Source: Candidatus Nanohaloarchaea archaeon (GTDB lineage: Archaea > Nanohalarchaeota > Nanosalinia > Nanosalinales > Nanosalinaceae). From it: DNA of 64,000 nt. Below are positions 17,061 to 44,673 of the stretch, one piece after another. The translations under genes and the position numbers were made by a program. Positions within the stretch are counted from its first letter, which is position 1. Each line of letters opens with the position of its first letter. The stretch is taken from assembly GCA_042218075.1 (NCBI GenBank), contig JBDGRK010000005.1:36716-100715 (forward strand). The letters are read 5' to 3'. A model generated the notes under the pieces. It worked only from the letters and a program-made list of their open reading frames with translations, was not told where the DNA came from and did not search any database.

Positions 17061-17181
17061 ATGAAAGGTGGACGTTTTTACACCGGAGCATTTTGAAAAT
17101 GACTTAAAACCTTCTAGCTTTAGCTCCAGCTTATTAAGTTCCCGCCCCGAATCTCTCTGCATGGTGGTTCTGAATGGATAG
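17061..17181 (+). promoter_or_regulatory. Putative Tyr-sensing frameshift leader of tyrS
   Basis: uORF 17061-17096 ATG AAA GGT GGA CGT TTT TAC ACC GGA GCA TTT TGA; +1 frame open to TAG 17179-17181, overlapping the tyrS ATG by 8 nt. Confidence 0.75.
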
Positions 17182-18196
17182 AGAGAACAGGAAAGAGTTT
17201 GTCCTCAGGAATACTGCAGAGTTTGTGAAGGAGGAGGAACTGGATGAGGTGCTGGATAAAGATGAACCCCGCGCCTACGTTGGATACGAGACTTCTGGGC
17301 CCGCCCACCTGGGACACTGGATCTCGGTGAGAAAGATGCTGGACCTTCAGAAGGCTGGCTTTCAGCCTGTTATACTCTGGGCGGATCTCCACACATACCT
17401 GAACAAGAAAGGGGAGGAGGAATGGATCGAGGATATGATGGAGTACTGGCAGGCCACCTTCGAGGCACTGGGACTTGAGGCAGAATACACTAAAGGAAGG
17501 AGTTTCGAGGAAAAAACAGAGTATTTCCACGACGTACTGGAGATGGCGAAAGAGACCACGATTAACAGGGGGACTCGATCAATGTCGGAAGTTGCAAGAG
17601 ACGATGAAAACCCTTACATCTCCCAGATAATTTACCCTCTGATGCAGTGCCTGGACATAGAATATCTCGACCTTGACCTGGCGGTCGCGGGCATCGACCA
17701 GAGAAAGATTCACATGCTGGCGAGAGAGAAACTCCCAAAGCTCGGCTACAGGAAGCCTACCTGCCTCCACTGGCCGATGCTGGCTTCACTTTCAGGAACG
17801 GGAGACAAGATGTCGTCCAGCAAGAAAGATACAATGTTCCCTCTGCACGCCGACCCCGATCACATTAGAGAAATTATAGAGGAAGGCTACTGTCCGCAGG
17901 GAGAGGTTGAGGACAATCCTATCATCGAGATAGCAAAGTACTTCATCTTCGGAGCTGATCGAGAGCTAAAGATAGAGAGAAAGGAGGAGTACGGTGGAGA
18001 CATTCACTACGAGGATTTCGAGGCTATGGCTGAAGACTTCGAATCCGGAGATCTACACCCTCTAGACCTGAAGGAAGCTGTAGCTGACGAAGTGGTGGAA
18101 AGGTTTGAGCCGGTGAGGCAGCGATTCAGAGAAGAGCCTGAGCTGCTTGATCCACTGGAAGAGATAGGTCACGAGAGACCCGGATATCTCCAGTGA
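17174..18196 (+). CDS. tyrS: Tyrosine--tRNA ligase (archaeal type)
   Basis: YVGYETSGPAHLGH (HIGH), IYPLMQCLD, GIDQRKIHMLARE, KMSSS. Confidence 0.97.
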   Translation: MDRENRKEFVLRNTAEFVKEEELDEVLDKDEPRAYVGYETSGPAHLGHWISVRKMLDLQKAGFQPVILWADLHTYLNKKGEEEWIEDMMEYWQATFEALGLEAEYTKGRSFEEKTEYFHDVLEMAKETTINRGTRSMSEVARDDENPYISQIIYPLMQCLDIEYLDLDLAVAGIDQRKIHMLAREKLPKLGYRKPTCLHWPMLASLSGTGDKMSSSKKDTMFPLHADPDHIREIIEEGYCPQGEVEDNPIIEIAKYFIFGADRELKIERKEEYGGDIHYEDFEAMAEDFESGDLHPLDLKEAVADEVVERFEPVRQRFREEPELLDPLEEIGHERPGYLQ

Positions 18197-18243: not shown

Positions 18244-18337
18244 ATGAAGGGTGGACGCTTTTCCGGTCGGAAGGTTTTCGAATGAACCAAAACCTGTTCT
18301 AGTTAAAGCTTTCTTCCAAAGTGGTTGGTATGCTTGA
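18244..18337 (+). promoter_or_regulatory. Putative Ser-sensing frameshift leader of serS
   Basis: uORF 18244-18285 ATG AAG GGT GGA CGC TTT TCC ... TGA; +1 frame open to TGA 18335-18337, overlapping the serS ATG by 8 nt. Confidence 0.75.
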
Positions 18338-19595
18338 TATAGATCTTTTCAGGCAGAATCCCGAGGAGATCAGAGAATCACAGAGAAAAAGAGGTGAAGA
18401 TCCTGAAAAAGTAGATGAAGTTGTCGAAGTGGATAGAGAATGGAGAGAGAAGCTCCAGGAGCTGGAATCTCTGCAGCAGGAGAGAAATACTGTTGGAGAT
18501 GAAATTGCTGAAGCAAAACAGAAAGGGAAAGACGCCTCTGAAAAGATCGAAAGGATGCAGCAGCTGAAACAAAAGATAGATGAACTGGAGGATGAGGTAA
18601 AGCAGCTTAAGGAAAGACGTGACAACTTGAGATACCAGATTGGAAACTTGCTGCATGAATCAGTTCCCGAAGGAGAAGGAGAGGAAGACAATCCTGAAGT
18701 CAGGAGCTGGGAGCCTGAAGGAGGAAGAAAGGAGGATTCGAAGCTGGCAGCCCACATTATGGAAGAGCAGAATTTGCTTTCCTCGGAGAAAGCGACTGAG
18801 GTGGGCGGAGAAAGAGCCTATTACCTATCACCAAAACTGATACAGCTTAGTCAGGCACTGATAAACTTCTCTATAGATTTCCTAGAGGAAAGAGGTTTCG
18901 GTGTATACCAGACTCCCTACATGCTGGAGGAAGAATCGATCTCAGCCGCAGTCGATCTTGAAACATTCGAAGAACAGCTTTACCAGGTGAATGAAAACGA
19001 TCGATACCTGATAGGGACCGCGGAGCACGCACTCGCCGCAAAGTACCAGAACGAAGTGATAGAAGAAGAACTTCCCCTCAAACTCGGAGGTTTCTCAACC
19101 AACTTCAGGAGGGAAGCCGGGAAGCACGGCCAGCAGACAAGAGGTCTATGGCGAGTACACCAGTTCGAGAAGGTGGAGCAGTTCGTGTTCTGCAAGCCAG
19201 AAAACCACCTTGATATTCTTGAAGAGACTCTATCCAATGCCGAGGATATAATGAAGCAGCTTGGTCTGCCGTACAGGGTGGTTGATATTTGTGACGGCGA
19301 TATTTCCAACAAGACTTTCAAACAGTACGATATAGAGGTCTGGAGGCCTCCACTTGGAGAGTACGGAGAAGTAGGAAGCTACGGTTCGTGCACAGGCTAC
19401 CAGTCCAGGGAATTTAACACACAGTTCAGAGAGGGAGGCAACAGAAAGACACCCTACACTGTATATGCCACTGGATTAGTACCTCAGAGGATTATTACAG
19501 CTATATTCGAGAACAATCAGGAAGAGGAAGGCATAAAGATTCCAGAACCTCTAAGAGATTACATGGGAGGCAAGGAGTACATCAGGCTGGAATAA
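18330..19595 (+). CDS. serS: Serine--tRNA ligase
   Basis: MLDIDLFR N-terminal coiled coil, LIGTAE, FRREAG...RGLWRVHQFEKVEQF. Confidence 0.97.
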   Translation: MLDIDLFRQNPEEIRESQRKRGEDPEKVDEVVEVDREWREKLQELESLQQERNTVGDEIAEAKQKGKDASEKIERMQQLKQKIDELEDEVKQLKERRDNLRYQIGNLLHESVPEGEGEEDNPEVRSWEPEGGRKEDSKLAAHIMEEQNLLSSEKATEVGGERAYYLSPKLIQLSQALINFSIDFLEERGFGVYQTPYMLEEESISAAVDLETFEEQLYQVNENDRYLIGTAEHALAAKYQNEVIEEELPLKLGGFSTNFRREAGKHGQQTRGLWRVHQFEKVEQFVFCKPENHLDILEETLSNAEDIMKQLGLPYRVVDICDGDISNKTFKQYDIEVWRPPLGEYGEVGSYGSCTGYQSREFNTQFREGGNRKTPYTVYATGLVPQRIITAIFENNQEEEGIKIPEPLRDYMGGKEYIRLE

Positions 19596-25207: not shown

Positions 25208-26707
25208 TTAGATTTTTAGTTTTCTATTGAGCTTTTCAATCTGTTTCTGGCTGTAACTCTGGAACTTTGGTTCATATCTATAAAATGTCTTAAAGAACCG
25301 GATTACCGTCCAATTTCTCAAATAATATTTATACTTATCTCTAATCACAGTTGTGTCAAATAGTTTCTCCAATTTTGAGGCAGTATCACTATTTTTATTC
25401 TGGATTCTTAGCTCATCTTTGCTAGATATCAAGTTAGATGCTATATTATCTATATTTTGGGATACCTTGACAGGCAATTTTACACCTGAATTAGAATTTC
25501 CTCTCAATCCTACTTTGAACTCCACTTCTTCTTTATTCAATTTCTCCAAAAAAGTTTCTCTAGATTCAAATATTGAATCTAACTTCTCTACAGAAGCAAA
25601 ATCGATTTCATTCTCCCAAGCATAAACCTGATTTTTTGATATACCTAATTCAGATCCTAATTCCTTCTGGTATAGATTATTCCTTTCTCTATAATCTCTA
25701 ATCTCATCACCCAATCCTAGGACCCTTAAATCGCTGATTTTTCCAAGATCAAAGTATGGTAAGTAAAAATTATGATTTCTTCTTCCCCTATAACACAGAG
25801 TCCTGGATCCATTTTTCAGCTTTGAAAAAATATGCTTTTTCTTCCTAGGATGTGCAGATCCAATCTTTTCGCAAAAGTATTCGAAATAATTACCTGAAAT
25901 CCTAATCCTGCCAACACCGTTCCTTTCTCTTCTATTTTTAGTCTCAATTCCCATATACTGAAGATCAGAAACACATTGATCGATAAAATGATCAGTTGCG
26001 GATGTTATTGTTACACGGTTACTTTGAGAAGAAACCGCACCATCTGCATCAAATAAACCCCTCCAATAAGCACCCAGCAATTCTTCATCTTCACTAAAAA
26101 GACTTGGCCGCCTTAATTTTCCTTTTTTATAAGATTCTGGCAACTTGAAAAAATATCTGAGGAACCTACAGAACCATTTATTTGAAACAGTCAGTTGAAT
26201 TTTATTTCCTCTATCTAGAATAGTTATAGATTTTTGAGGTATACCAAATAGTCTTTGAATCTTCATTGACATATCCTCGATAAAATCTCTGGAATGTGAG
26301 ATTTCCGAATCATTCTTTCCTCCGTCCACTAAAGTCCATCTAGATGAGTCAGAGAATCCGCCATCACCAGCAGCCAGACCAGCGAAATAAGCATATTCAT
26401 CTGATCTTAATTCAGAAATAAATCTAGGAGGATCAAATCTTGATTTATCTCCATATCCTGTGATGTAATCTATAGCTTCAGCTAGTTCTTTTGAACTATA
26501 TCTTGTTAAAAAGATTTCCAAAGGCCATAAGTTTCGCTCTTCGCAATTCCTAATTAAATAACCTTCATAATTTTCCAGATCAGTAGAATCAAAATTAAAT
26601 CTAGAGTTAAGCTTAGCGTATGGCTTCTCTCTAAAAGTTTTATCCAAATCTCTAGAGACCGATTCAACTATTTTAAGCTCTCCAGACTCGTAAAATAGCT
26701 CTTCCAT
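25208..26707 (-). CDS. Free-standing LAGLIDADG homing-endonuclease-like protein with XRE-type HTH
   Basis: FAGLAAGDG and WRGLFDADG motifs; LYQKELGSELGISKNQVYAWEN HTH; AT-rich; no intein termini. Confidence 0.85.
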   Translation of the reverse strand: MEELFYESGELKIVESVSRDLDKTFREKPYAKLNSRFNFDSTDLENYEGYLIRNCEERNLWPLEIFLTRYSSKELAEAIDYITGYGDKSRFDPPRFISELRSDEYAYFAGLAAGDGGFSDSSRWTLVDGGKNDSEISHSRDFIEDMSMKIQRLFGIPQKSITILDRGNKIQLTVSNKWFCRFLRYFFKLPESYKKGKLRRPSLFSEDEELLGAYWRGLFDADGAVSSQSNRVTITSATDHFIDQCVSDLQYMGIETKNRRERNGVGRIRISGNYFEYFCEKIGSAHPRKKKHIFSKLKNGSRTLCYRGRRNHNFYLPYFDLGKISDLRVLGLGDEIRDYRERNNLYQKELGSELGISKNQVYAWENEIDFASVEKLDSIFESRETFLEKLNKEEVEFKVGLRGNSNSGVKLPVKVSQNIDNIASNLISSKDELRIQNKNSDTASKLEKLFDTTVIRDKYKYYLRNWTVIRFFKTFYRYEPKFQSYSQKQIEKLNRKLKI

Positions 26708-27284: not shown

Positions 27285-27555
27285 TCACCTACAGCAAGAA
27301 GCTGTTCCCGACCTGCCAGGCCAAGAAACAGCGAGAAAACTCTACACAATAAGCAGCAGCACAATCAGGATAATCGAAACTGCACTGAATTCAGATACTT
27401 TCGAAAACAAACCAGAATCCATATTTGAGAAACTAACCGAGCAGAACATGTCCACCCTGGATAAAGCATCCACCCTGCACAAAATATTCACCCGTGGGGG
27501 CCGTGGACAGTGCTTTATGGAACATAGTCGTTAAGTCTCCTCTATTCTTTATAAA
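27285..27555 (-). promoter_or_regulatory. Putative Val/Ile/Leu-sensing triple-site frameshift leader
   Basis: TTTATAAA 22 nt before ATG 27525; uORF 27433-27525 with GGT GAA TAT TTT GTG / GGT GGA TGC TTT ATC / GGT GGA CAT GTT CTG; +1 frame ends IILIVLLLIV* at 27342; hairpin follows. Confidence 0.75.
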
Positions 27556-35181: not shown

Positions 35182-35390
35182 CACCTTTCAATTAGGAAGT
35201 GCAGAAAGAGCGAATTCTTTTCATGGAGGCCCGCCCTTTCAACACTCCGGGTCGATGGGCCCCCTTCAAACGACTAAAATAATCAGCAGGATAGCGATAC
35301 CGCTGACCAGATTCACTGATCCCGGTTCAAAGTTTTCGGCCAGCGTTTCTAACATATTTGATGCATCCACAGCAAACATTTAAATAAGGT
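35182..35390 (-). promoter_or_regulatory. Branched-chain-amino-acid leader peptide (no frameshift site) with downstream hairpins
   Basis: TTTAAA about 23 nt before ATG 35355; uORF 35266-35355 MLETLAENFEPGSVNLVSGIAILLIILVV*; GC-rich stem GGGGCCC/GGGCCTC; TCGCTCTTTC can pair with SD GAAAGGTGA. Confidence 0.65.
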
Positions 35391-35424: not shown

Positions 35425-36471
35425 CTATCCGGACCCTGTCTCCTCAAGATACTCCTTTCCCTCAGTGCAGTTTTCTCCAAATTTTTCCAGGTCAGTGTTT
35501 GCGCCACAGAGAGGCACCGCGACCTTTCTTCCCTCCAGATTCATGCCTAAATCTCTGCTGAAAAGCACAGCTGACGCAGCAACTGCTCCCGCAGGTTCAG
35601 TAACGACCTTCTGTCTCTCCGCCAGCATAGCTACAGTCGCCTTCACCTGTTCATCGGAAACATAGACCACTTCGTCGACAAGTTCCCTCATGTGCCCGGC
35701 GGGAAGATCTCCTACCCTTCTCGTAGCTATACCTTTCGCAACTGTGTCGACTGAATCTCTCTCGTACACCTTCTCCCGGTTGATAGTCTGCTTCGCGGAA
35801 CCGCACCCCTCTGTCTGTACACCGACAACTCTTGAATCAGGATTCAGGTGCTTTACTGCCGTAGCGACTCCACTTATTAGACCGCCGCCGCCGATGGCCA
35901 CAAAAACAGTGTTGAGTTCCGGGAACTGTTCCACCATCTCTTTTCCCAGTGTTCCCTGCCCTGCTATAACACCCGGATCATTGTATGGATGGACGAAGGT
36001 TAATCCCTGCTCCTTTTCCAGCTTTCTCGCATATTTCTTCGACTCCTCGAACTCCTCTCCATGGAGAACCACATCAGCACCGTAGCCGGAAGTAGCCTCA
36101 ACCTTCGCATCCGGGGTGTTCTCCGGCATCACTATCGTGGCTTCAACACCAAGCTCTCTGGCGGCGAGAGCAACTCCCTGCGCGTGGTTTCCTGAAGAAG
36201 CTGCGATCACTCCCCTCTCCTTATCTTCCCCGGAGAGCCGGGAAATCTTGTTGTAAGCTCCTCTAAGCTTGAAGGCCCCGGTCCTCTGGAAGTTTTCCAT
36301 CTTGAAACCTACTTTATCAGCTCCGGATTTCTCGGCGAAGGTTCTGGAGAAATCCATCGGAGTTTTCTTCGCGATTCCCTCAAGCCTTTCAGCTGCTCCT
36401 TTTACAGAGCTGTAGCTCACCAGTTCTTCGGATTTTGAAGTTTTCAGCGTTGCGTGGTCGTGTTTTGTCAT
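35425..36471 (-). CDS. ilvA: Threonine ammonia-lyase (short form, no regulatory domain)
   Basis: KMENFQRTGAFKLRGA, ASSGNHAQG, IGGGGL, EPAGA; SD GAGGTG before ATG 36471. Confidence 0.93.
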   Translation of the reverse strand: MTKHDHATLKTSKSEELVSYSSVKGAAERLEGIAKKTPMDFSRTFAEKSGADKVGFKMENFQRTGAFKLRGAYNKISRLSGEDKERGVIAASSGNHAQGVALAARELGVEATIVMPENTPDAKVEATSGYGADVVLHGEEFEESKKYARKLEKEQGLTFVHPYNDPGVIAGQGTLGKEMVEQFPELNTVFVAIGGGGLISGVATAVKHLNPDSRVVGVQTEGCGSAKQTINREKVYERDSVDTVAKGIATRRVGDLPAGHMRELVDEVVYVSDEQVKATVAMLAERQKVVTEPAGAVAASAVLFSRDLGMNLEGRKVAVPLCGANTDLEKFGENCTEGKEYLEETGSG

Positions 36472-36474
36472 TTT

Positions 36475-36647
36475 GCGAAGCACCTCTTGGAGAATAATCT
36501 AAGAGAAAGCTCGATTTCTACCCAATAATACCGATAATCGAAATGATGGAAATAGATCCAGAAACTTCAGAAAAATCAGATAGAGTTGGGACTCCCGAAA
36601 CTTTACTCAGATTCAGTAGACCGAAGGATAAAGCGTCCACCCTTCAT
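36475..36647 (-). promoter_or_regulatory. Putative Ile-sensing frameshift leader of ilvA
   Basis: uORF 36603-36647 ATG AAG GGT GGA CGC TTT ATC ... TAA; +1 frame ends ISIISIIGIIG* at 36518; CTCTT/AAGAG hairpin over the SD. Confidence 0.8.
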
Positions 36648-36701
36648 TGACGAACTCACAGAATTATAAAGAGAAATAAGAATTTAAAAAGGGAAGGGAG
36701 A

Positions 36702-37469
36702 TTACATTCCCATAGTTCCCTGAGAATCGACCTCATCTGTTTCCGGAGTTCGGTCTCGAACATAGCTATCTATAGATGTTCCCGGCATGTAGCCTCTTGA
36801 TTTAATGTACTCCTCTCTGGCTTCAACTATAACTTCATCCGGTATCTCAACATCTCTTCGAGCTTCTGGAGCCCCATCATACCTGTTAGCGGTTACAGCA
36901 TAGCGAGTATCTCCTTCGAGAAGCTGGGTTATCTGCCACTCATGAACCGGATTGATATTGCTCCCAGTGACTTCCTCAAGAAAGTTCTCATCATCTATAT
37001 CCGTCTCCTGCGCCAAGACCCTTATCATCTCCAAATCGTCCACACCAAGATATTCCTCCTCTTCAGGCACTCTATCTCCATAGATCAGAGAATCCGGCAT
37101 CTCATCTTTATAGATGAAATCTCCTTCTCCCGGATCCCACCATCTCTGATCTCTCGGATCCTGTCTGAACTCTACAGTCTCAGCACCACGATTATCAGTG
37201 CCGCTCTGAGTTTGAGTTATCACACCTCCATCGGTTCTTGCTTCATAACCCTCTTCTTCAAACATGAATTCTGAGGCGGTTTCCATATCGCTTTTCTCTT
37301 CCATGATAGAATCGTGGGGATGTTCTGTACTTGTACCGGGATCCCGGCTTTTAGCTTCATTCGGATTTGTGGGCGGAGATTCATCATGAAGAATTTCATG
37401 AACCCTGATGCCTTCTCTGAGTCTTTCATCCAATTCTTCCCTATTCTTGTACTGAGACTTACCCATCAT
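36702..37469 (-). CDS. Orphan acidic protein with RTDGG motif
   Basis: 255 aa ORF, SD GGAGGTGA, ATGATG overlap with the mini-ORF stop. Confidence 0.7.
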   Translation of the reverse strand: MMGKSQYKNREELDERLREGIRVHEILHDESPPTNPNEAKSRDPGTSTEHPHDSIMEEKSDMETASEFMFEEEGYEARTDGGVITQTQSGTDNRGAETVEFRQDPRDQRWWDPGEGDFIYKDEMPDSLIYGDRVPEEEEYLGVDDLEMIRVLAQETDIDDENFLEEVTGSNINPVHEWQITQLLEGDTRYAVTANRYDGAPEARRDVEIPDEVIVEAREEYIKSRGYMPGTSIDSYVRDRTPETDEVDSQGTMGM

Positions 37470-37546
37470 CTCTCACCTCCTTCTACAGCTGTTTCCACGG
37501 ATTTTGAGTCGCGTTGCGTATGTTGGGTTTGGTTGTAGTTTGTCAT
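37466..37546 (-). CDS. Mini-ORF (26 aa) coupled to the downstream orphan gene
   Basis: SD GAGGTGA; MTNYNQTQHTQRDSKSVETAVEGGER*. Confidence 0.6.
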   Translation of the reverse strand: MTNYNQTQHTQRDSKSVETAVEGGER

Positions 37547-37548
37547 AG

Positions 37549-37757
37549 AGTGTTCACCTCGAAATTGAGAAACGAGAAATGAACACTGCGCTTTTTACAG
37601 CAGCAGTGCCAGCAGAATCAAAAGTAGCAGTGAAAGTCCAAGATCAATTGAATCGGAAATCGAGAAAATAGCTGGAGCTCGTTTATCGCAATTCCAGAAC
37701 GCGTCCACCTATAGTTAATGGCTCCATACTATTTCCCGTTTAATCAGTCTTTATAAA
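37549..37757 (-). promoter_or_regulatory. Putative Leu-sensing frameshift leader with anti-SD hairpin
   Basis: TTTATAAA 22 nt before ATG 37727; uORF 37683-37727 with GGT GGA CGC GTT CTG; +1 frame ends LGLSLLLLILLALLL* at 37595; AGTGTTCA..CTCG/CGAGGTGAACACT stem at 37549-37587. Confidence 0.8.
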
Positions 37758-38098
37758 TTCTTGAGGTTGGCAGTCGCACTGTGATGTCTGTCTTTGCCAT
37801 GCGCAGGATGCCTGTCTATTTCAGAATTTAGCAATCTTTCCGCTTTATTCACCTTTTTGGCATCTTCAGGTTCAAGTTCTACATTTACATCTCTGAGTTT
37901 TATTTCAGCCAAATCCATCAAGTTATACATAGAATCAGAGGGTGTATCCTGGATAAGATCATTCAAATATTCAGCAGCTTCCTCCAGAGCGTCACTTTCA
38001 TATCTATCGGCAATAGTTTCGATGTCGGCAGTCGCTTCTCTGATATCGTCATATCTATCAAGAGCTTCCTTTGGGTAGACGACCATATTACTTATCAT
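37751..38098 (-). CDS. Hypothetical helical protein
   Basis: 115 aa acidic ORF; start may be 38086. Confidence 0.6.
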   Translation of the reverse strand: MISNMVVYPKEALDRYDDIREATADIETIADRYESDALEEAAEYLNDLIQDTPSDSMYNLMDLAEIKLRDVNVELEPEDAKKVNKAERLLNSEIDRHPAHGKDRHHSATANLKNL

Positions 38099-38133
38099 TT
38101 CATACAGTTTTTAATACTTTTTGGTAACAACAA

Positions 38134-38823
38134 TCAGAACAATCCCTTCTTTTCTGTTTCTTCAATACCGTTATCTGTTATCTTGAACTGCTTTGACTTT
38201 CCCTCCGGCATCGAGCGGTGCTTCTCCACCTCTATCTCTCGAAGACCGCTATCGACTTTCGAAAGCTTCAGGAGACACTTCGACCAGTAGCGGGGAACAT
38301 CTCTCCCCACCAGCTCGATATCATCCTCGTCAAAGGAAGTGTAGACCTGGTTGGTGACAAGAGCAGGAATATCATTCTTCCTCGCCACCTTCGAAATCTC
38401 GGAGAGCTGCTGGGATAGCTTCTGGTTCATCTCCTGGACCTGGTCTCCCTGGGCCTGTAAGCGGTAGAGCGAAACCATCGAGTCAACTATAACTGCGGAA
38501 GCGTCTTCCTCCTCCGCTATCGATTCAAGAGAGTTGATAGCCTCCTGCTGCTGCCCGAAGTCGAGAGGCTCGTTTACCACCATGTTTTCCAGCGCTTCCT
38601 CAGAGGCGATCTGGCTGAACCGCTCCGCCGAAAAACCCTTCTCGGTATCGAGGTAGATGACCTTCTCGCCTTCCGAGGCCAGATGCGCCGCGACCTGGAC
38701 GCAGAAGTTGGTCTTCCCTGATCCCGACTCTCCGAATACATTGGTGATTATACCCTTCTCGAGCCCTCCTTTTAGGAAAGAGTCGATAGGCTCGCTTCCA
38801 GTAGATACACGTTCTACTTCCAC
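38134..38823 (-). CDS. radB: DNA repair and recombination protein RadB
   Basis: GESGSGKT Walker A, VIVDS, VTNQVY, EKHRS basic patch; no N-terminal HhH domain. Confidence 0.93.
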   Translation of the reverse strand: MEVERVSTGSEPIDSFLKGGLEKGIITNVFGESGSGKTNFCVQVAAHLASEGEKVIYLDTEKGFSAERFSQIASEEALENMVVNEPLDFGQQQEAINSLESIAEEEDASAVIVDSMVSLYRLQAQGDQVQEMNQKLSQQLSEISKVARKNDIPALVTNQVYTSFDEDDIELVGRDVPRYWSKCLLKLSKVDSGLREIEVEKHRSMPEGKSKQFKITDNGIEETEKKGLF

Positions 38824-39056
38824 ACCCGAGCTTTCACTCGAAATCTTTTATCGGTGTGTGATAGAACTTTCATATGGGCTTAATAGAGGAGGAAGTTGAA
38901 GATAAGAATCAACTTGGAAAGGATAAATACTGAAATTGGCGAGTATTCAATAGCTGTAGAAGCACTTATTTTTGATCTCGAAGGTGATCGGATTCTGATG
39001 GAAGAAGGATCCGGATGTTGAGACGAAGTTGATAAATTGGAAGTTATTGCCGCCTG

Positions 39057-40454: not shown

Positions 40455-40805
40455 ATGTCCAAGGAAAAGGAGGCCTCGCTTCTCACCTACAACACTCACA
40501 GGGAAAAGTTCGAGTCCGTGTATGAAAGAAACAAGTTTTACCGCGGGCTATTCGGCTACACGCAAAAGGTGAAGAAAAACGGGAAGACCTACGAGTATGA
40601 GAAAGATGGACTGATGGACGAGATACCCAACTCAAGGATCGACGACTCTGTATTCATAATCGCAAACCACTACGTCACAAGAATCGAAGACTACTTCCAG
40701 GACTGGGGAGAAAAGGTCTCCCACCATATTTTCAAAGTCATAATCGAGGATAAGAACATCATCGAGCAGATAAGAGGAGATAATTATGAACGACAACAAC
40801 AATGA
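40455..40805 (+). CDS. Conserved hypothetical protein upstream of cdc48
   Basis: 116 aa ORF (FYRGLFGY...GLM...SVFII); TATA-like TTTAAA upstream; overlaps the cdc48 start. Confidence 0.7.
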
Positions 40806-43800
40806 AGACGGAAGCAGGGCGAGGCTCCGAGTAGGAGAGGTACCGCCCAACGCACAGCAGGACATCGGAAAAGGCATAGTCAGGATAGACTCCAACGTGA
40901 TGGAGGAACTGGGAGTCTCGGAGGGTGATGCTGTAACAATAGAAGACGAGAGGGAAACCGTAGGAAGAGTCGCGAGAAGCTATCCCGCAGATAAAGGACT
41001 CGGTATCGCGAGAATGGACGGTTACATGAGAAAGAACGCAGGGACTTCTCTCGGACAGAAGGTAGAGGTTGAGAAAGCCGAGCTGAAAGAGGCTGAGAAA
41101 ATCACCCTCGCACCTGCAGAGGAAGGAGTGATGATCCAGGTCCAGAACCCGAAGATATTCCAGAGAGCTCTGAGAGGAAGGGCGGTGATGCAGGGCGACA
41201 TAGTAGTTCCGGGGGATGGAGACGATCGCAGAAAATCGATATTCGACGACGTATTCGACATGGAAGCCGATCGCTTCAGGTTCTCTTTCGGGCAGGAGAC
41301 GAAGCTGGCTGTGGTCGACACAAATCCAGGAGGAGCAGTAAAGATCACTGAAGCGACCGAGATAGAGGTCAAGCAGCAGGCAGTGGAAGACGTTGAAAAA
41401 CAGCAGGTGAGAGTACCGGAGGTAACCTACGAGGATATCGGAGGCCTCGAATCAGAGATACAGCAGGTCAGGGAGATGATCGAGCTGCCTCTAAAACACC
41501 CTGAAGTGTTCCAGCAGCTGGGGATCGAGGCTCCCTCAGGAGTACTGCTACACGGGCCTCCCGGCACCGGAAAAACTTTACTCGCGAAAGCGGTCGCAAA
41601 CGAGGCGGATGCCACATTCATGTCCATCAACGGTCCGGAGATCATGAGCAAATTCTACGGAGAATCCGAGAAACAGCTCAGAGAAAAGTTTGAGGAGGCG
41701 CAGGACAACTCTCCCGCGATAATCTTCATAGACGAGATCGACGCAATCGCCTCAAAGAGAAGCGATGTAGGAGGCGAGGTGGAGAGAAGGGTTGTGGCGC
41801 AGCTTCTTTCCCTCATGGATGGACTCGAGGAGCGCGAAAACGTTATCGTGATAGCCGCGACAAACAGGCTTGACGCTATTGACGAAGCCTTGAGAAGGGG
41901 AGGAAGATTCGACAGGGAGATCGAGATCGGTGTCCCGAACAGGGAAGGTAGAAAGGAAGTGCTCCAGATTCACACCAGAAACATGCCCCTGACAGACGAC
42001 GTCGACCTTGAAGAAGTCGCGGAGAAAACCCACGGCTATGTCGGGGCTGACATAGAGGCGATGGCGAAAGAAGCCGCGATGAGTGTTCTGAGGAGAGTTC
42101 TCCCCGAGATAGACCTCGACGAGGAGATACCTAGCGACGTGATGGACGAATTAGTAGTTGATCGGGATGCAATGCTCGAAGGAATAAGAAAGGTCCAGCC
42201 CTCAGCGATGAGAGAGGTCATGGTCGAAGTTCCGCAGGTCACCTGGGAAGAAGTCGGAGGACTGGAGAACACGAAGGAACAGCTAAGAGAGATGGTGGAA
42301 TGGCCGCAGAAGTACCCTGAAAGGTTCGAGAAGATGGGTATAGAGGTTCCTAAAGGAATACTTCTCTACGGTCTGCCGGGAACAGGAAAGACTTTACTCG
42401 CAAAGGCTGTCGCGAACGAGGCGAACGCCAACTTTATCTCCATAAAGGGGCCTGAAATTTTCTGCCTGTCCGGAGATACACCTATAGTCACAGATTTCTG
42501 CGGTAGAAGGTCAATCGAGGAGTTCTACGATAGAGCGGTTGAAATTAGTGAAAAAGTCCATAAGGATGATAGAAAGACAGTCTTCGAACCTGAGGAAGAG
42601 ATCAGGACGAAAGGCATCGACGAGAATGGAGAAATAGTTGATTCCAAGGTCGATCGGTTCTACAGCATAGAGGTGCCCAAAAGTTACAGGCTGGAGTTTG
42701 ATGATGGCAGTTCCATCCATGTATCCGGCAACCAGCCTTTCTATACGTCAGAAGGGTGGAAGAAAGCTTCAGAAATAGAAGAGAAAGAAATGGTGGCATC
42801 GCCTTCACGGATAGACTCCTTCGGGAAGGATCGGATTGAATGGGAGCAACTTGACCGGGAGAACTTCCACATTCAGAAAGAAGGAGAACTGGTAGCTCTA
42901 GGCGATACAGAAGTAGAGGAAATGAATCATATCACTTATGCTAGGAAACTAACTTCGGAGGAGAAAACTATACGGATACCGGAGGAACTTAATCCTTCGC
43001 TTTCAGAACTACTGGGATTTATCTCGGCGGAGGGAAGCCTTAAAGAAGACGAGGTAAGGATAGCAGCGAGTGATGAGGACAACAGATCAAGAATAAGAGA
43101 GCTGCTGGAGGAAATATTTGAGGAAGAAAGGATAAATGAGAGAGAAGACGGTTTAGCTGTTTACTCCAGAGCATTTGTAGAACTTCTGCATCAAGGTTTC
43201 GATATTCCAAGAGAGGATAAAACAGCAAATATCAGAGTGCCAGGACTGCTCTTCAAGGCTTCCGAGAAGAACTGGAACGGATTCCTTAAGGGAGCTTTCA
43301 GGGGGGACGGCTACATAGGCGAGAAAAAAGTGGATTACTGCTCGAAGAGCGAGGAACTTGTCGATGGAATATCGACACTGTTAAGGTTCAAGGGATTCAC
43401 TCCGAGAAAGTTTGAAGACGGAGAAGGCTACTTCCACGTCAACCTAAGCGGTAAAGGCGAGATAACAAGGTTCAGGTCGGAAGTGATGGGAGAGGAGATA
43501 GAGATTAAAGAAGACAACAGGAACAAGCAGAGACCGATGCCAGACATGCGAGAGGAGGTAGAAGAGCTTAGGGATAACCTCAGGATGACCTACGGCAGAG
43601 ATATCAAGGAGGGAGTTATAGCACCCATTATCGAGAGAGAGCAGGAATTCGGGCAGGATAGGGCCAGAAAACTCGTGAATGCTTTCAGGGAGAGAACCAA
43701 AGAAGTTGAAGAATTAGAGATTGAGGAAACAATAGGGAGCCTGAGAGAGGCGAAAGATGTGCTGAAAGTTACTTGGCCTGAACTGGAAATGGAACTCGGT

Positions 43801-44673
43801 TACAATCCAAAATACCAGCTGAACGGGAAAAATGAATACGGGGAGAAACACGAAGAGATCAGAGAATACCTGGAAAAAGTGAGGGAATCAATCCTATCGG
43901 ACCGAAACTTCGAGACCCTACAGAAGCTTGACACCGCATCCAGAGATCTCGCATGGAAACAAATTGAATCAATTGAACAAAAGGGAGAAACCACGATGTA
44001 CGACCTTGAAACCTCGACAGGTAGCCTCATAGGCGGACAAACGCCTCTGATGCTTCACAATTCCAAGTATGTTGGAGAGTCAGAGGAAGCGGTGAGAGAG
44101 GTCTTCCAGAAAGCAAGGCAGGTAGCGCCGTGCATACTCTTCATAGACGAGATCGATTCTATAGCAACGAAGAGAGGATCCAGAACAGATTCAGGAGTCG
44201 GAGACAGAGTTGTCAACCAGCTTTTGACAGAGCTCGACGGAATAGAGGATCTGGAAGGAGTTACCGTGATCGCCGCGACGAATCGGCCCGACCTGATCGA
44301 TCCCGCTCTCCTGAGGCCGGGAAGAATAGACAGAGATATTGAGGTTGAAAACCCTGACCTGGAAGCCAGGAGGAAGATCCTGAAAGTTCACACGAGGGAC
44401 ATGCCGCTCTCCGATGAAATAGATCTCGATGCTCTGGCTGAGAAGATAGACGCCTACGTTGGTAGCGACATCGAGTCTCTCTGCAGGGAGGCCGCGATGC
44501 TCGCACTTAGAGAAGATCCGGACTCGGAAGAAGTGAAGATGGAGCATTTCGAGGAAGCTATGGAAGAGATCAACCCGACCGCCACAGAGGAAAACGTCGA
44601 GCACTACAGGCAGATGATGAAAAGGATGAAAGAAATGGAAGAACCTGATGAAAGCCCGGATTACTACGCCTGA
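40786..44673 (+). CDS. cdc48: CDC48/VCP family AAA+ ATPase with intein in D2
   Basis: N-domain, two Walker A ([16 protein letters not shown]) and Walker B (IFIDEID, LFIDEID) sets; insertion between KGPEIF and SKYVGESE. Confidence 0.96.
42463..44061 (+). mobile_element. Intein with LAGLIDADG endonuclease in CDC48 (533 aa)
   Basis: Starts [15 protein letters not shown] and [10 protein letters not shown] motifs, MYDLET block F, ends MLHN followed by Ser. Confidence 0.93.

Follow-up and report, generated by a model that had tools for sequence, protein, structure and literature searches.

A window of 64,000 nucleotides (nt) from Candidatus Nanohaloarchaea archaeon (contig JBDGRK010000005.1, positions 36,716 to 100,715) contains a short open reading frame (ORF1) with a leucine codon in a distinctive sequence setting, overlapped in the +1 frame by a second one (ORF2) that ends in a run of leucine codons shortly before the Shine-Dalgarno (SD) sequence of a third (ORF3). 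The question raised by this locus is whether such an arrangement senses leucine and, if so, how a ribosome would pass from the first frame to the second. Comparison with other leaders of the same and related genomes indicates that it is very probably an amino-acid-specific regulatory leader read by the ribosome, belonging to a family in which one exchangeable codon matches the enzyme encoded downstream. For the passage between frames the best reading is a +1 frameshift at a hungry codon, similar in shape to that of prfB, which would feed ORF2 and thereby turn on the downstream gene; on the sequence evidence this course is regarded as reasonably probable.

The sequence items listed in the original prediction were all found as described, including the parallel with a second leader at 27525; all coordinates of the focal leader refer to the minus strand of the window, read 5' to 3', and are collected in Table 1. 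The cassette within ORF1 consists of an SD-like GGUGG, the codon CGC (rare by codon count, at 4% of arginine codons in the genome), a shift-prone GUU (37700-37698) and the leucine test codon CUG (37697-37695). As had been predicted, ORF2 contains no leucine codon before its tail. The hairpin noted originally, here termed hairpin B, joins as RNA AGUGUUCA-UUU-CUCG with CGAG-G-UGAACACU and covers the SD GAGGTGA (37560-37554), which lies 7 nt before the ORF3 start codon. The ORF3 stop overlaps the ATGATG start of ORF4 (AGATGATGG), and ORF3-like frames of 24-38 codons stand after most tail-bearing leaders. Archaeal transcription starts at a set distance from the TATA box, and because of the TATA-to-ATG spacing we infer that the focal transcript is leaderless, starting at or beside the ORF1 AUG. 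The acidic product of ORF4, presumed to be the regulated protein, gave no Pfam or NCBIfam family and no usable Atlas hit, and its Atlas model has a predicted local distance difference test score (pLDDT) of 0.37; homologues of ORF4 stand after Leu-type leaders in 8 loci. Nothing was found in Pfam and NCBIfam for ORF2 or ORF3 either, or for the 115-, 616- and 124-residue ORFs of the window, and among nine more downstream proteins searched in families the only names were GATase and MazE/AbrB. Rfam gave 0 matches at E<=1 over 36000-39000.

The strongest evidence for amino-acid specificity is that the test codon predicts the downstream gene. When the genome of the window was scanned for the cassette with the test triplet relaxed, and genes behind leaders of this genome and of relatives were checked against NCBIfam curated cut-offs, the test codon fitted the downstream enzyme in 10 of 10 cases, all above cut-off. 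In the same genome UUC (Phe) precedes PheRS alpha, GGA (Gly) GlyRS, ACC (Thr) ThrRS, GUU (Val) ValRS, UAC (Tyr) TyrRS (window 17174-18193) and UCC (Ser) SerRS (window 18330-19592); in relatives CUA (Leu) precedes LeuRS, AAG (Lys) LysRS, CAC (His) HisG and CUG (Leu) 2-isopropylmalate synthase (LeuA). The isoleucine codon of the leader at 36647, standing before threonine ammonia-lyase, fits the rule as well. A blind sample was then formed from 40 further regions of about 25 relatives, picked by test codon alone, and the 44 leaders contained in them were followed by blastx; the cognate ligase was found behind 43 (Gly 8/8, Tyr 9/9, Ser 10/10, Thr 8/8, Val 4/4, Lys 2/3, Phe 2/2), and one region (L134) held no leader. 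Orthologous leaders are not independent, but at least 11 distinct leader-gene pairs still agree, and 14 amino acids occur as test-codon specificities among 160 cassettes. The proposal of a leucine-specific leader is supported, as is the reading of the codon after KTT as a specificity codon. Not every such gene carries a leader: in a sister family (f3) TyrRS (5/5) and GlyRS (4/4) start directly after the TATA box, and one ThrRS locus (G039) has none. The LeuRS with a Leu leader in a relative (L042, G020) is of the bacterial type (TIGR00396, 972 bits), and the leaderless LeuRS gene of the window's genome (G000 C36:27040, L160) encodes another type, with a best blast match of 50% over 95 residues.

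The leader also recurs in conserved form in related genomes. DNA search recovered the stretch 37400-37800 from 9 of 24 same-family genomes at 73-81% identity, and the alignment of homologues keeps the TATA box, GGTGGACGCGTTCTG, CACTGCTGCTGTAAAAAGCGCAGTG, TTTCGAGGTGAAC..ACTCTATGACA and the ORF3 end GAAGGAGGTGAGAGATGATGG, the cassette being near-invariant across 10 homologues. ORF1 orthologues keep ...GG[RHC]VL followed by 1-10 codons and a stop; the ORF2 peptide is poorly conserved, yet its frame is always open. The cassette pattern GGTGGAYRYKTTMT gave 84 matches in 43 of 50 family genomes, against 6 for a reversed-pattern control, and occurs also in 4 of 8 genomes of a second family. About 8 of the 84 were set aside as chance matches inside long ORFs (e.g., L021, L023, L055, L058, L070, L074, L077), and matches were dropped where ORF1 had no ATG. 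In its general form the cassette is GGU-GRA-YRY-KUU-[test codon], present in 1-3 copies per ORF1, with the +1 frame open across all of them; counted from the first cassette in 68 leaders, frame 0 stays open for a median of 11 codons, the +1 frame for 38 and the +2 frame for 17.5. A TATA-like box lies 24-36 nt before the ATG in 53 of 77 leaders (the other 24 have no TATA box plus ATG by the regular expression used), and in 53 of these 53 the ATG is in frame 0 with the cassette at a varying distance, which upholds the predicted reading of ORF1 as GGT GGA CGC GTT CTG.

This constancy of frame bears on the suggestion that the conserved 15-mer serves to bind a protein or an RNA (as an operator or riboregulator), the ORFs being incidental. 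Near-invariance at the nucleotide level and repetition in one to three copies would suit a binding site. However, the 15-mer lies anywhere from 15 to about 120 nt from the TATA box, but its offset from the ATG is in every case divisible by 3, no Rfam match was obtained, and a variable triplet that encodes the amino acid of the downstream enzyme is inexplicable by a single binding factor, so that this explanation is given very little credence. A palindromic operator, GGACGCGTTC, was also considered and was dropped because the Ile and Val variants of the cassette are not palindromic.

Table 1. Coordinates of the focal leucine leader and of other leaders in the window
Feature	Position	Strand	Description
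TATA box TTTATAAA	37757-37750	-	22 nt before the ORF1 ATG at 37727
ORF1 MEPLTIGGRVLELR (stop)	37727-37683	-	short leaderless sensor ORF (leaderless by TATA spacing)
Cassette GGT GGA CGC GTT CTG	37709-37695	-	inside ORF1, in frame
ORF2 MDAFWNCDKRAPAIFSISDSIDLGLSLLLLILLALLL (stop)	GTG 37708 to TAA 37597-37595	-	+1 frame relative to ORF1; 37 codons
Leu-rich tail LGLSLLLLILLALLL	37642-37598	-	Leu at 11 of the last 15 ORF2 codons, mostly CUG/CUA
Hairpin A	37610-37599 with 37592-37582	-	ORF2 stop codon in the loop
Hairpin B, arms AGTGTTCA-TTT-CTCG and CGAG-G-TGAACACT	37587-37573 and 37561-37549	-	7 nt after the ORF2 stop
ORF3 MTNYNQTQHTQRDSKSVETAVEGGER (stop)	37546-37466	-	26 codons; C/A-rich start
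ORF4	37469-36702	-	acidic 255-residue protein; putative regulated gene of the focal leader
Ile-type leader	36670-36518	-	ORF1 (36647-36603) MKGGRFILRSTESE (stop), test codon AUC; before threonine ammonia-lyase (36471-35425)
Val+Ile+Leu-type leader	27555-27196	-	ORF1 (27525-27433) holds GEYFV, GGCFI, GGHVL; ORF2 ends SIILIVLLLIV (stop)
ORF2-like small ORF MFAVDASN...SGIAILLIILVV (stop)	35379-35266	-	ATG directly in the ORF2-type frame; no ORF1
Tyr-type class II leader	17061-17181	+	ORF1 (17061-17096) MKGGRFYTGAF (stop), test codon UAC (17079-17081)
Ser-type class II leader	18244-18337	+	ORF1 (18244-18285) MKGGRFSGRKVFE (stop), test codon UCC

The composition of the cassette points to the manner in which the second frame may be entered. 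In the frameshift cassette of prfB, an SD-like run lies too close to a shift-prone P-site codon ending in UU, which is followed by a slow A-site codon that senses the factor in question. In the present cassettes GGUGG or GGUGA lies 4-5 nt before KUU in all 160, and the GGUG core recurs as the SD at 6-9 nt upstream of gene starts. The base that follows KUU is, with few exceptions, tied to K: GUU is followed by C in 64 cassettes and by another base in 1, and UUU is followed by C in 2 and by A, G or U in 92, GUU occurring with Leu, His, Pro and one Arg test codon and UUU with all others. Because K is silent in ORF2, the coding of ORF2 cannot explain the avoidance of UUU_C, which is explained only by the reading of ORF1 or by slippage (UUU_C to UUC). 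These counts agree with the original prediction, in which GTT was held to replace TTT since TTT followed by C would re-pair.

The relation of ORF2 to the gene that follows divides the family into two classes. Class II comprises the leaders of tRNA ligases, in which ORF1 stops 1-23 codons after the test codon and an ORF2 of 24-61 codons, without a tail, brings the gene start to within -11 to +12 nt of its own stop in 49 of 49 cases (overlapping in 33). The genes have an SD-like GGUG or AGUG 6-9 nt before the ATG, and the leaders fold no better than shuffled sequences (z +1.4 and +0.1). Translational coupling needs an overlap or a very short gap, according to the accessible text of two reports (PMC6728339, PMC10666635), and by analogy the class II spacing is the geometry of coupling by termination and reinitiation. 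In class I, which includes the focal leader, ORF2 carries a tail and ends 25-72 nt before the next start.

Taken together, these features suggest the following course. A ribosome on a transcript begun at or beside the ORF1 AUG would read ORF1 in frame across GGU-GGA-CGC-GUU-CUG, until GUU is in the P site, GGUGG is paired to the 16S tail 5 nt behind, and CUG awaits Leu-tRNA. If Leu-tRNA is scarce the ribosome would shift +1 into ORF2, with a hungry sense codon acting in place of the UGA of prfB; if it is not scarce, ORF1 would end 3 codons on, about 75 nt before the hairpins. A ribosome shifted in a class II leader would end ORF2 on the start codon of the cognate gene and feed that gene by termination and reinitiation. 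Such a shift, together with positive coupling, fits the targets expected to rise on starvation, namely ligases, HisG, LeuA and IlvA.

Some leaders contain frames that appear, from their sequences, to be reachable only by shifting. A His cascade in the genome of the window (G000 C40:23687-24186, +, L094) has an ORF1 beginning MKGDCVH.. with test codon CAC and two successive cassettes, the second of which (..CAG UGC GUU CAC, read ..QCVH in ORF2) has no +1 GUG; one frame further it leads into an AbrB/SpoVT-like ORF (PF04014, 32 bits, cut-off 24.7) with no ATG, GTG or TTG before its fold, which could be a transcription factor made on His starvation. In another genome (G002) a His leader stands before hisG instead of the AbrB-like cascade. 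A Pro leader (G000 C40:12623-13122, -, L093) has three cassettes, GGCVP, GGYLP (CUU CCU) and GGRVP, each one +1 frame on, and ends in an acidic ORF of 72-107 residues without known family. In variant SerRS leaders of sister families f3 and f4 (L135-L138, L142, L144), ORF1 is ATGACAGGGTTTTAYCGCCAATCA (M-T-G-F-x-R-Q-S) and ORF2, here in the -1 frame, has its stop +1 to +5 nt from the SerRS ATG in 6 of 6; in 2 of the 6 it has no start codon (none at all in L135, none after the ORF1 ATG in L138). Direct fusion of the +1 frame to a long protein is found in 2 cases only, and mostly it forms a non-conserved ORF2 that ends at the next gene. Two Trp (UGG) leaders about 280 nt apart were also noted (G000 C10:50520-51019, -, L089), the +1 frame of the second cassette continuing into a 244-residue protein that lacks a Pfam family and an ATG close by. 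Many relatives carry Trp cassettes in pairs, spaced by about 300 nt.

These frames have to be set against the simpler possibility that the sensor codon is the same and no shift occurs, ORF2 starting at the GUG within GGUGGA. A ribosome halted on the test codon, which lies 9-11 nt further on, would cover and so block that GUG; translation of ORF2 over the SD and AUG would be repressive, and starvation would de-repress the gene. Every cassette found does hold a +1-frame GUG, though the search patterns themselves required GGTG, and the second codon of ORF2 is mostly GAY. Long proteins continue from the GUG (the 244-residue ORF of the second Trp cassette and a 362-codon ORF behind a Lys leader, L131), the downstream genes have an SD-like GGUG or AGUG of their own at 6-9 nt, and a fused form in a relative (L004) and the window's own 35379 ORF, both with an ATG directly in the ORF2-type frame, show that such frames can start directly. 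However, no SD precedes the GUG, and starting there leaves unexplained the restriction of G at K to test codons that begin with C. In leaders with two or three cassettes, the GUGs of the later ones would stay free when a ribosome stalls at the first, and the OR-logic fails; the spacing of stop and start, at -11 to +12 nt, is that of positive coupling; and the AbrB-like frame of the window's genome and 2 of the 6 variant SerRS ORF2s have no start codon to offer. A GUG start is consequently considered unlikely, if worth keeping in mind, and a hungry-codon +1 shift remains the probable cause of the frame switch.

In class I leaders the tail provides a second link to the amino acid sensed. Tails are not always of leucine, as the focal leader alone might suggest, and instead follow the test codons of ORF1: in 38 leaders composition tracks the test codons for Leu (p=2.5e-5), Ile (p=7e-6) and Val (p=1.4e-3), p-values that are overstated because the leaders are related. 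Leaders with FI cassettes only have Ile tails (I 4-8), those with VL only have Leu tails (L 6-10), FI+VL leaders have mixed tails, FV+VL leaders have Val+Leu tails with no Ile, and FV-only leaders have Val-rich tails. The choice of isoacceptor is similarly restricted. Class I test codons are CUG (35) or CUA (9), AUC (14) or AUU (12), and GUG (5) or GUA (3), with no others; in the tails Leu codons are CUG at 0.70 and CUA at 0.16 (genome 0.36 and 0.08), and Ile codons are AUU, AUC and AUA at 0.67, 0.32 and 0.02 (genome 0.23, 0.36 and 0.42), so that CUR makes up 86% and AUY 99% in tails against 44% and 59% in the genome.

That ORF2 might simply encode a small hydrophobic membrane protein, tail-anchored or toxin-like, with ORF1 unrelated and no sensing of amino acids, is suggested by a hydrophobic stretch of 11-16 residues at the very end of a 28-72-residue ORF. 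That stretch is too short for a membrane helix (about 18-20 residues), and Ile tails are too rich in Ser and Gly (SISIISIIGIIG); tail composition and isoacceptor choice go with the test codons of ORF1, the peptide shows no conservation outside the tail and matches no Pfam family, and 21 of 59 leaders have no hydrophobic tail. The membrane-protein explanation is accordingly held to be highly improbable.

Beyond the tail lies the region in which the original prediction placed its regulatory hairpin. The 81-nt hairpin stretch folds at -19.8 kcal/mol, compared with -13.8 +/- 2.7 for shuffled sequences (z -2.25; 5 of 200 shuffles as good), within a 311-nt leader whose whole fold is ordinary against shuffles (z 0.03). 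The minimum-energy fold prefers over hairpin B another structure, hairpin A, that had been missed. The 5' arm of hairpin A is made of the last four ORF2 codons, and its 3' arm shares five columns, GUGUU, with the 5' arm of hairpin B, the two being mutually exclusive. Hairpin A is paired in 99% of alignment cells (90.8% in shuffles) with compensatory changes at 4 pairs, and its covariation score of 0.391, compared with 0.240 in shuffles, is reached by 0 of 500 shuffles.

The effect of a ribosome on these structures was evaluated by constraint folding, in which the ribosome was represented by keeping the nucleotides at -15 to +12 relative to the A site unpaired, in keeping with the size of its footprint. 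In the focal leader SD access was 0.28 in the ground state, 0.49-0.64 with the ribosome on tail codons -14 to -9, 0.13-0.25 on codons -8 to -1, and 0.36 on the stop. A ribosome at the tail or stop had been expected to melt the hairpin, and the calculations are at variance with this, since the last seven tail codons lower SD access and the stop raises it only slightly above the ground state. Across 34 leaders access changed on average by at most 0.01 with the ribosome upstream and by -0.03 to -0.06 with it on the last seven codons, this small fall (in 10-14 leaders) being the sole consistent effect. In the model, a ribosome halted where the Leu codons of the tail begin would favour hairpin A and weaken hairpin B, and a ribosome on the last tail codons would free the 3' arm of hairpin A and lengthen hairpin B; SD access would be lowered there because hairpin A competes with hairpin B.

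For class I leaders the frameshift reading would therewith be extended as follows. A ribosome in the focal ORF2 would meet 11 Leu codons (CUG, CUA, CUU, UUG) in or before the 5' arm of hairpin A, and the position at which it stalls would pick hairpin A or the SD-covering hairpin B and so set initiation at ORF3, which would pass to the 255-residue gene by stop-start coupling. The modelling lends weak support to the tail as a second check, in which a shifted ribosome would open the ORF3 site only on stalling again. Read-through from ORF2 into ORF3, which are in frame and 51 nt apart here, was dropped as a candidate because in other leaders the two ORFs are often offset by a distance not divisible by 3.

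The tail and hairpin A might alternatively act in transcription attenuation, with hairpin A and the U/C-rich run behind it stopping RNA polymerase, a ribosome stalled on the Leu codons of the 5' arm preventing the fold, and hairpin B being secondary. The covariation of hairpin A, whose 5' arm is the end of ORF2 itself, would agree with this, as would the regulatory codons that reach to the last codon of ORF2, the recurrence of stop-in-loop hairpins in many of the 32 tail-bearing leaders folded, and the pyrimidine-rich sequence that follows. Archaeal intrinsic termination, however, relies on oligo-T, and hairpin A is followed by T runs of 3 nt and by none of 5 or more; a terminator scan of 37300-37900 on the minus strand was empty, and class II leaders work without any structure. 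Attenuation of transcription is for these reasons rated as improbable.

Several observations weigh against the frameshift reading or against its extension to the hairpins, besides the relatedness of leaders and the GUG that GGUGRA always offers as a possible ORF2 start. Among leader-gene pairs, the Lys leader L131 precedes an uncharacterised ORF that continues straight on in the +1 frame, the LeuRS gene of the window's genome has no leader (GGTGAAGTTCTG stands 5 nt after its TATA box, with no ATG), and the 255-residue protein of the focal locus has no known link to leucine by Pfam, NCBIfam and Atlas searches. Exceptions to the UUU_C rule are 3 of the 160 cassettes and, besides these, GUU UCC in G038 and UUU CAU in G054, and tRNA-Val re-pairs poorly on UUC after GUU_C. 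The His cascade recurs in a relative (L080, G054), but there GUGs exist in the AbrB-like frame. As for the hairpins, the original prediction of a strong anti-SD hairpin stands to the extent that pairing over GAGGTGA is present; when examined for covariation in homologous leaders, as had been proposed, hairpin B had 74% of cells paired over 9 orthologues, and its covariation did not exceed that of shuffles (270 of 500 as high); burial of the SD is not general to tail-bearing leaders, class I leaders, with a predicted SD/AUG access of 0.50 (n=34), being no less open than class II leaders at 0.46 (n=44). A stall at -14 to -9 is predicted to open the SD clearly in the focal leader only and weakly in 4 of 7 orthologues, and the 35379 leader showed no such effect in constraint folding. 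A Leu-rich tail should, moreover, stall the shifted ribosome too, which leaves the sign of the tail effect ambiguous. Finally, what the sequences show is the anatomy of the leaders and its conservation, the agreement of test codon with gene, the avoidance of UUU_C and the covariation of hairpin A; from them we infer, rather than observe, the start of the transcript, the frameshift, the direction of regulation and the role of the tail.

The family resembles several known systems. In erm-type leaders a stalled ribosome chooses between alternative hairpins. The trp, leu, ilv, his and pheST attenuators combine a codon-enriched leader ORF with competing hairpins, exist in multivalent Ile/Leu/Val versions, and control biosynthetic or ligase genes, whereas a T-box of Gram-positive bacteria is a structured RNA (Stem I, specifier loop, T-box sequence) that binds uncharged tRNA with no ribosome and carries a specificity triplet before cognate synthetase or amino-acid genes; T-boxes and leader-peptide attenuators are, to our knowledge, bacterial. 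The cassette is like that of prfB in its SD-like run, short spacer, P-site codon ending in UU, a slow A-site codon whose decoding factor would be the quantity sensed, and a putative output in the +1 frame. It is unlike prfB, with its UGA and CUU, in having a sense codon for any of 14 amino acids as test codon, UUU or GUU in the P site and a spacer of 4-5 nt, in that the shift would enter a regulatory ORF2 coupled to a separate gene instead of the body of the sensed protein, and in being archaeal, on leaderless mRNA, where prfB is bacterial. According to the accessible text of a 2016 review, release factors are listed as autoregulatory frameshift cases in bacteria, hungry-codon shifts without an SD and the Ty1 site CUU_AGG_C are described, and no example is known of hungry-codon shifting that makes starvation-specific products; in the ermC leader, a drug-induced frameshift is described there as allowing ribosomes to translate into the spacer, unfold the mRNA and permit initiation (PMC5009743). 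As in the hungry-codon shifting of Gallant and in Ty1, so far as that text and a review of archaeal recoding (PMC8211752) describe them, limitation of aminoacyl-tRNA at the A site would drive the shift with a wobble-paired P-site tRNA; Ty1 depends on a constitutively rare tRNA and gives a fixed ratio, whereas here there would be a physiological sensor with cognate targets.

Similarity to erm attenuation lies in a leader ORF and an SD that a predicted hairpin may cover, and the differences in a signal from aminoacyl-tRNA rather than an antibiotic, two overlapping ORFs, the ORF2 stop in the loop of a competing hairpin, and a burial of the SD that is weakly supported. Leader-peptide attenuators likewise have regulated codons clustered in a short ORF and mutually exclusive hairpins at its end; here, by contrast, no terminator was found, one test codon stands in a fixed cassette with a second frame, class II leaders are unstructured, and the host is archaeal. 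The functional likeness to T-boxes (one family of cis-elements, one specificity triplet per leader, cognate targets) is offset by the lack of an Rfam match, by class II leaders without structure and by a triplet that would be read by a translating ribosome. By analogy, then, the family works like prfB and Ty1, erm, T-boxes and attenuators while missing their defining features, i.e., a stop codon at the shift site, a terminator or a structured RNA. The nearest leaderless attenuators are, from the accessible part of one report, the polycysteine leaderless short ORFs at operon 5' ends in mycobacteria, described as amino-acid-responsive (10.1101/834739); those are bacterial and have Cys runs, unlike the conserved cassette, second frame and cognate-synthetase regulon found here. 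For Archaea a single proven shift, of the -1 type, is reported in the accessible text of a 2021 recoding review, in which leader peptides and attenuation are absent (PMC8211752). Literature searches, whose coverage stopped short of subscription journals, yielded no published description of such a leader family, and the family-wide regulon appears to be undescribed so far.

We lean slightly towards a general view, in which programmed +1 frameshifting at one hungry sense codon would give salt-lake nano-archaea a modular means of sensing amino acids or charged tRNA, the equivalent of a T-box but carried by the ribosome. Such a sensor would consist of a fixed cassette and an exchangeable test codon on a leaderless mini-ORF, with the +1 frame coupled to the cognate gene; it would encompass at least 14 specificities and the two- and three-step cascades for His and Pro, and the focal Leu leader would be an AND gate, opening the next ribosome-binding site only if the ribosome, once shifted, stalls a second time in a tail made of the same codons. 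If true, hungry-codon frameshifting would here have its first natural regulatory role, and Archaea, in which little is understood of how the expression of synthetase and amino-acid genes is adjusted to tRNA charging, would have their first described case of amino-acid control by a leader ORF. Since the exchangeable codon predicts the enzyme so consistently, simple reporters would allow a direct test of the question. A function would be assigned to dozens of small ORFs per clade that now lack annotation, the test codon would hint at the physiological link of the acidic uncharacterised proteins behind Leu, Ile, Val, Trp and Pro leaders, and the cassette would offer a compact, re-programmable part for translational sensors.

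The window contains further members of the family (Table 1). The leader at 27525 has TTTATAAA, 22 nt and an ATG as in the focal leader, and also GGTGGACATGTTCTG; its tail (L4 I4 V3) is followed by an ORF3 and a gene for 124 residues (27196-26822). In the Ile-type leader, ORF2 (36640-36518) ends with the sequence cited above as rich in Ser and Gly. The threonine ammonia-lyase behind it matches TIGR01127 at 3.7e-108, below cut-off, over positions 1-290 of 380, that is, the catalytic part only; it has no C-terminal regulatory domain, and the Ile leader may stand in place of feedback control. The small ORF at 35379 precedes an acidic 616-residue gene (ATG 35176). On the plus strand, ORF2 of the Tyr leader (17068-17181) stops 5 nt inside the tyrosine--tRNA ligase gene (ATG 17174; NF006330, 403 bits, cut-off 220), and ORF2 of the Ser leader (18251-18337) overlaps the start of the serine--tRNA ligase gene (ATG 18330; ATGCTTGA; TIGR00414, 412 bits, cut-off 302).

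A few minor observations concern the surroundings of these leaders. An acidic 115-residue ORF (37751-38098, -) lies between radB and the Leu leader, and in relatives the leader comes directly after radB (..GLF and stop, then the TATA box). ORF3 opens with a G/U-poor, C/A-rich run, ATGACAAACTACAACCAAACCCAACATACGCAA, and a similar run, MTKHDHATLKTSKS, forms the first 14 codons of the threonine ammonia-lyase ORF (36471-36430); such runs could be unstructured initiation regions or a further signal. Elsewhere in the window, 40786-44673 (+) encodes a Cdc48/VCP-like AAA ATPase of 1295 residues, apparently split by an intein-like insert in its second ATPase domain, and a 499-residue ORF (25208-26707, -), perhaps a free-standing gene of the homing-endonuclease kind, has weak NCBIfam matches only, to models that contain inteins (IF-2, RNA polymerase A'') and to a HipB-like helix-turn-helix.

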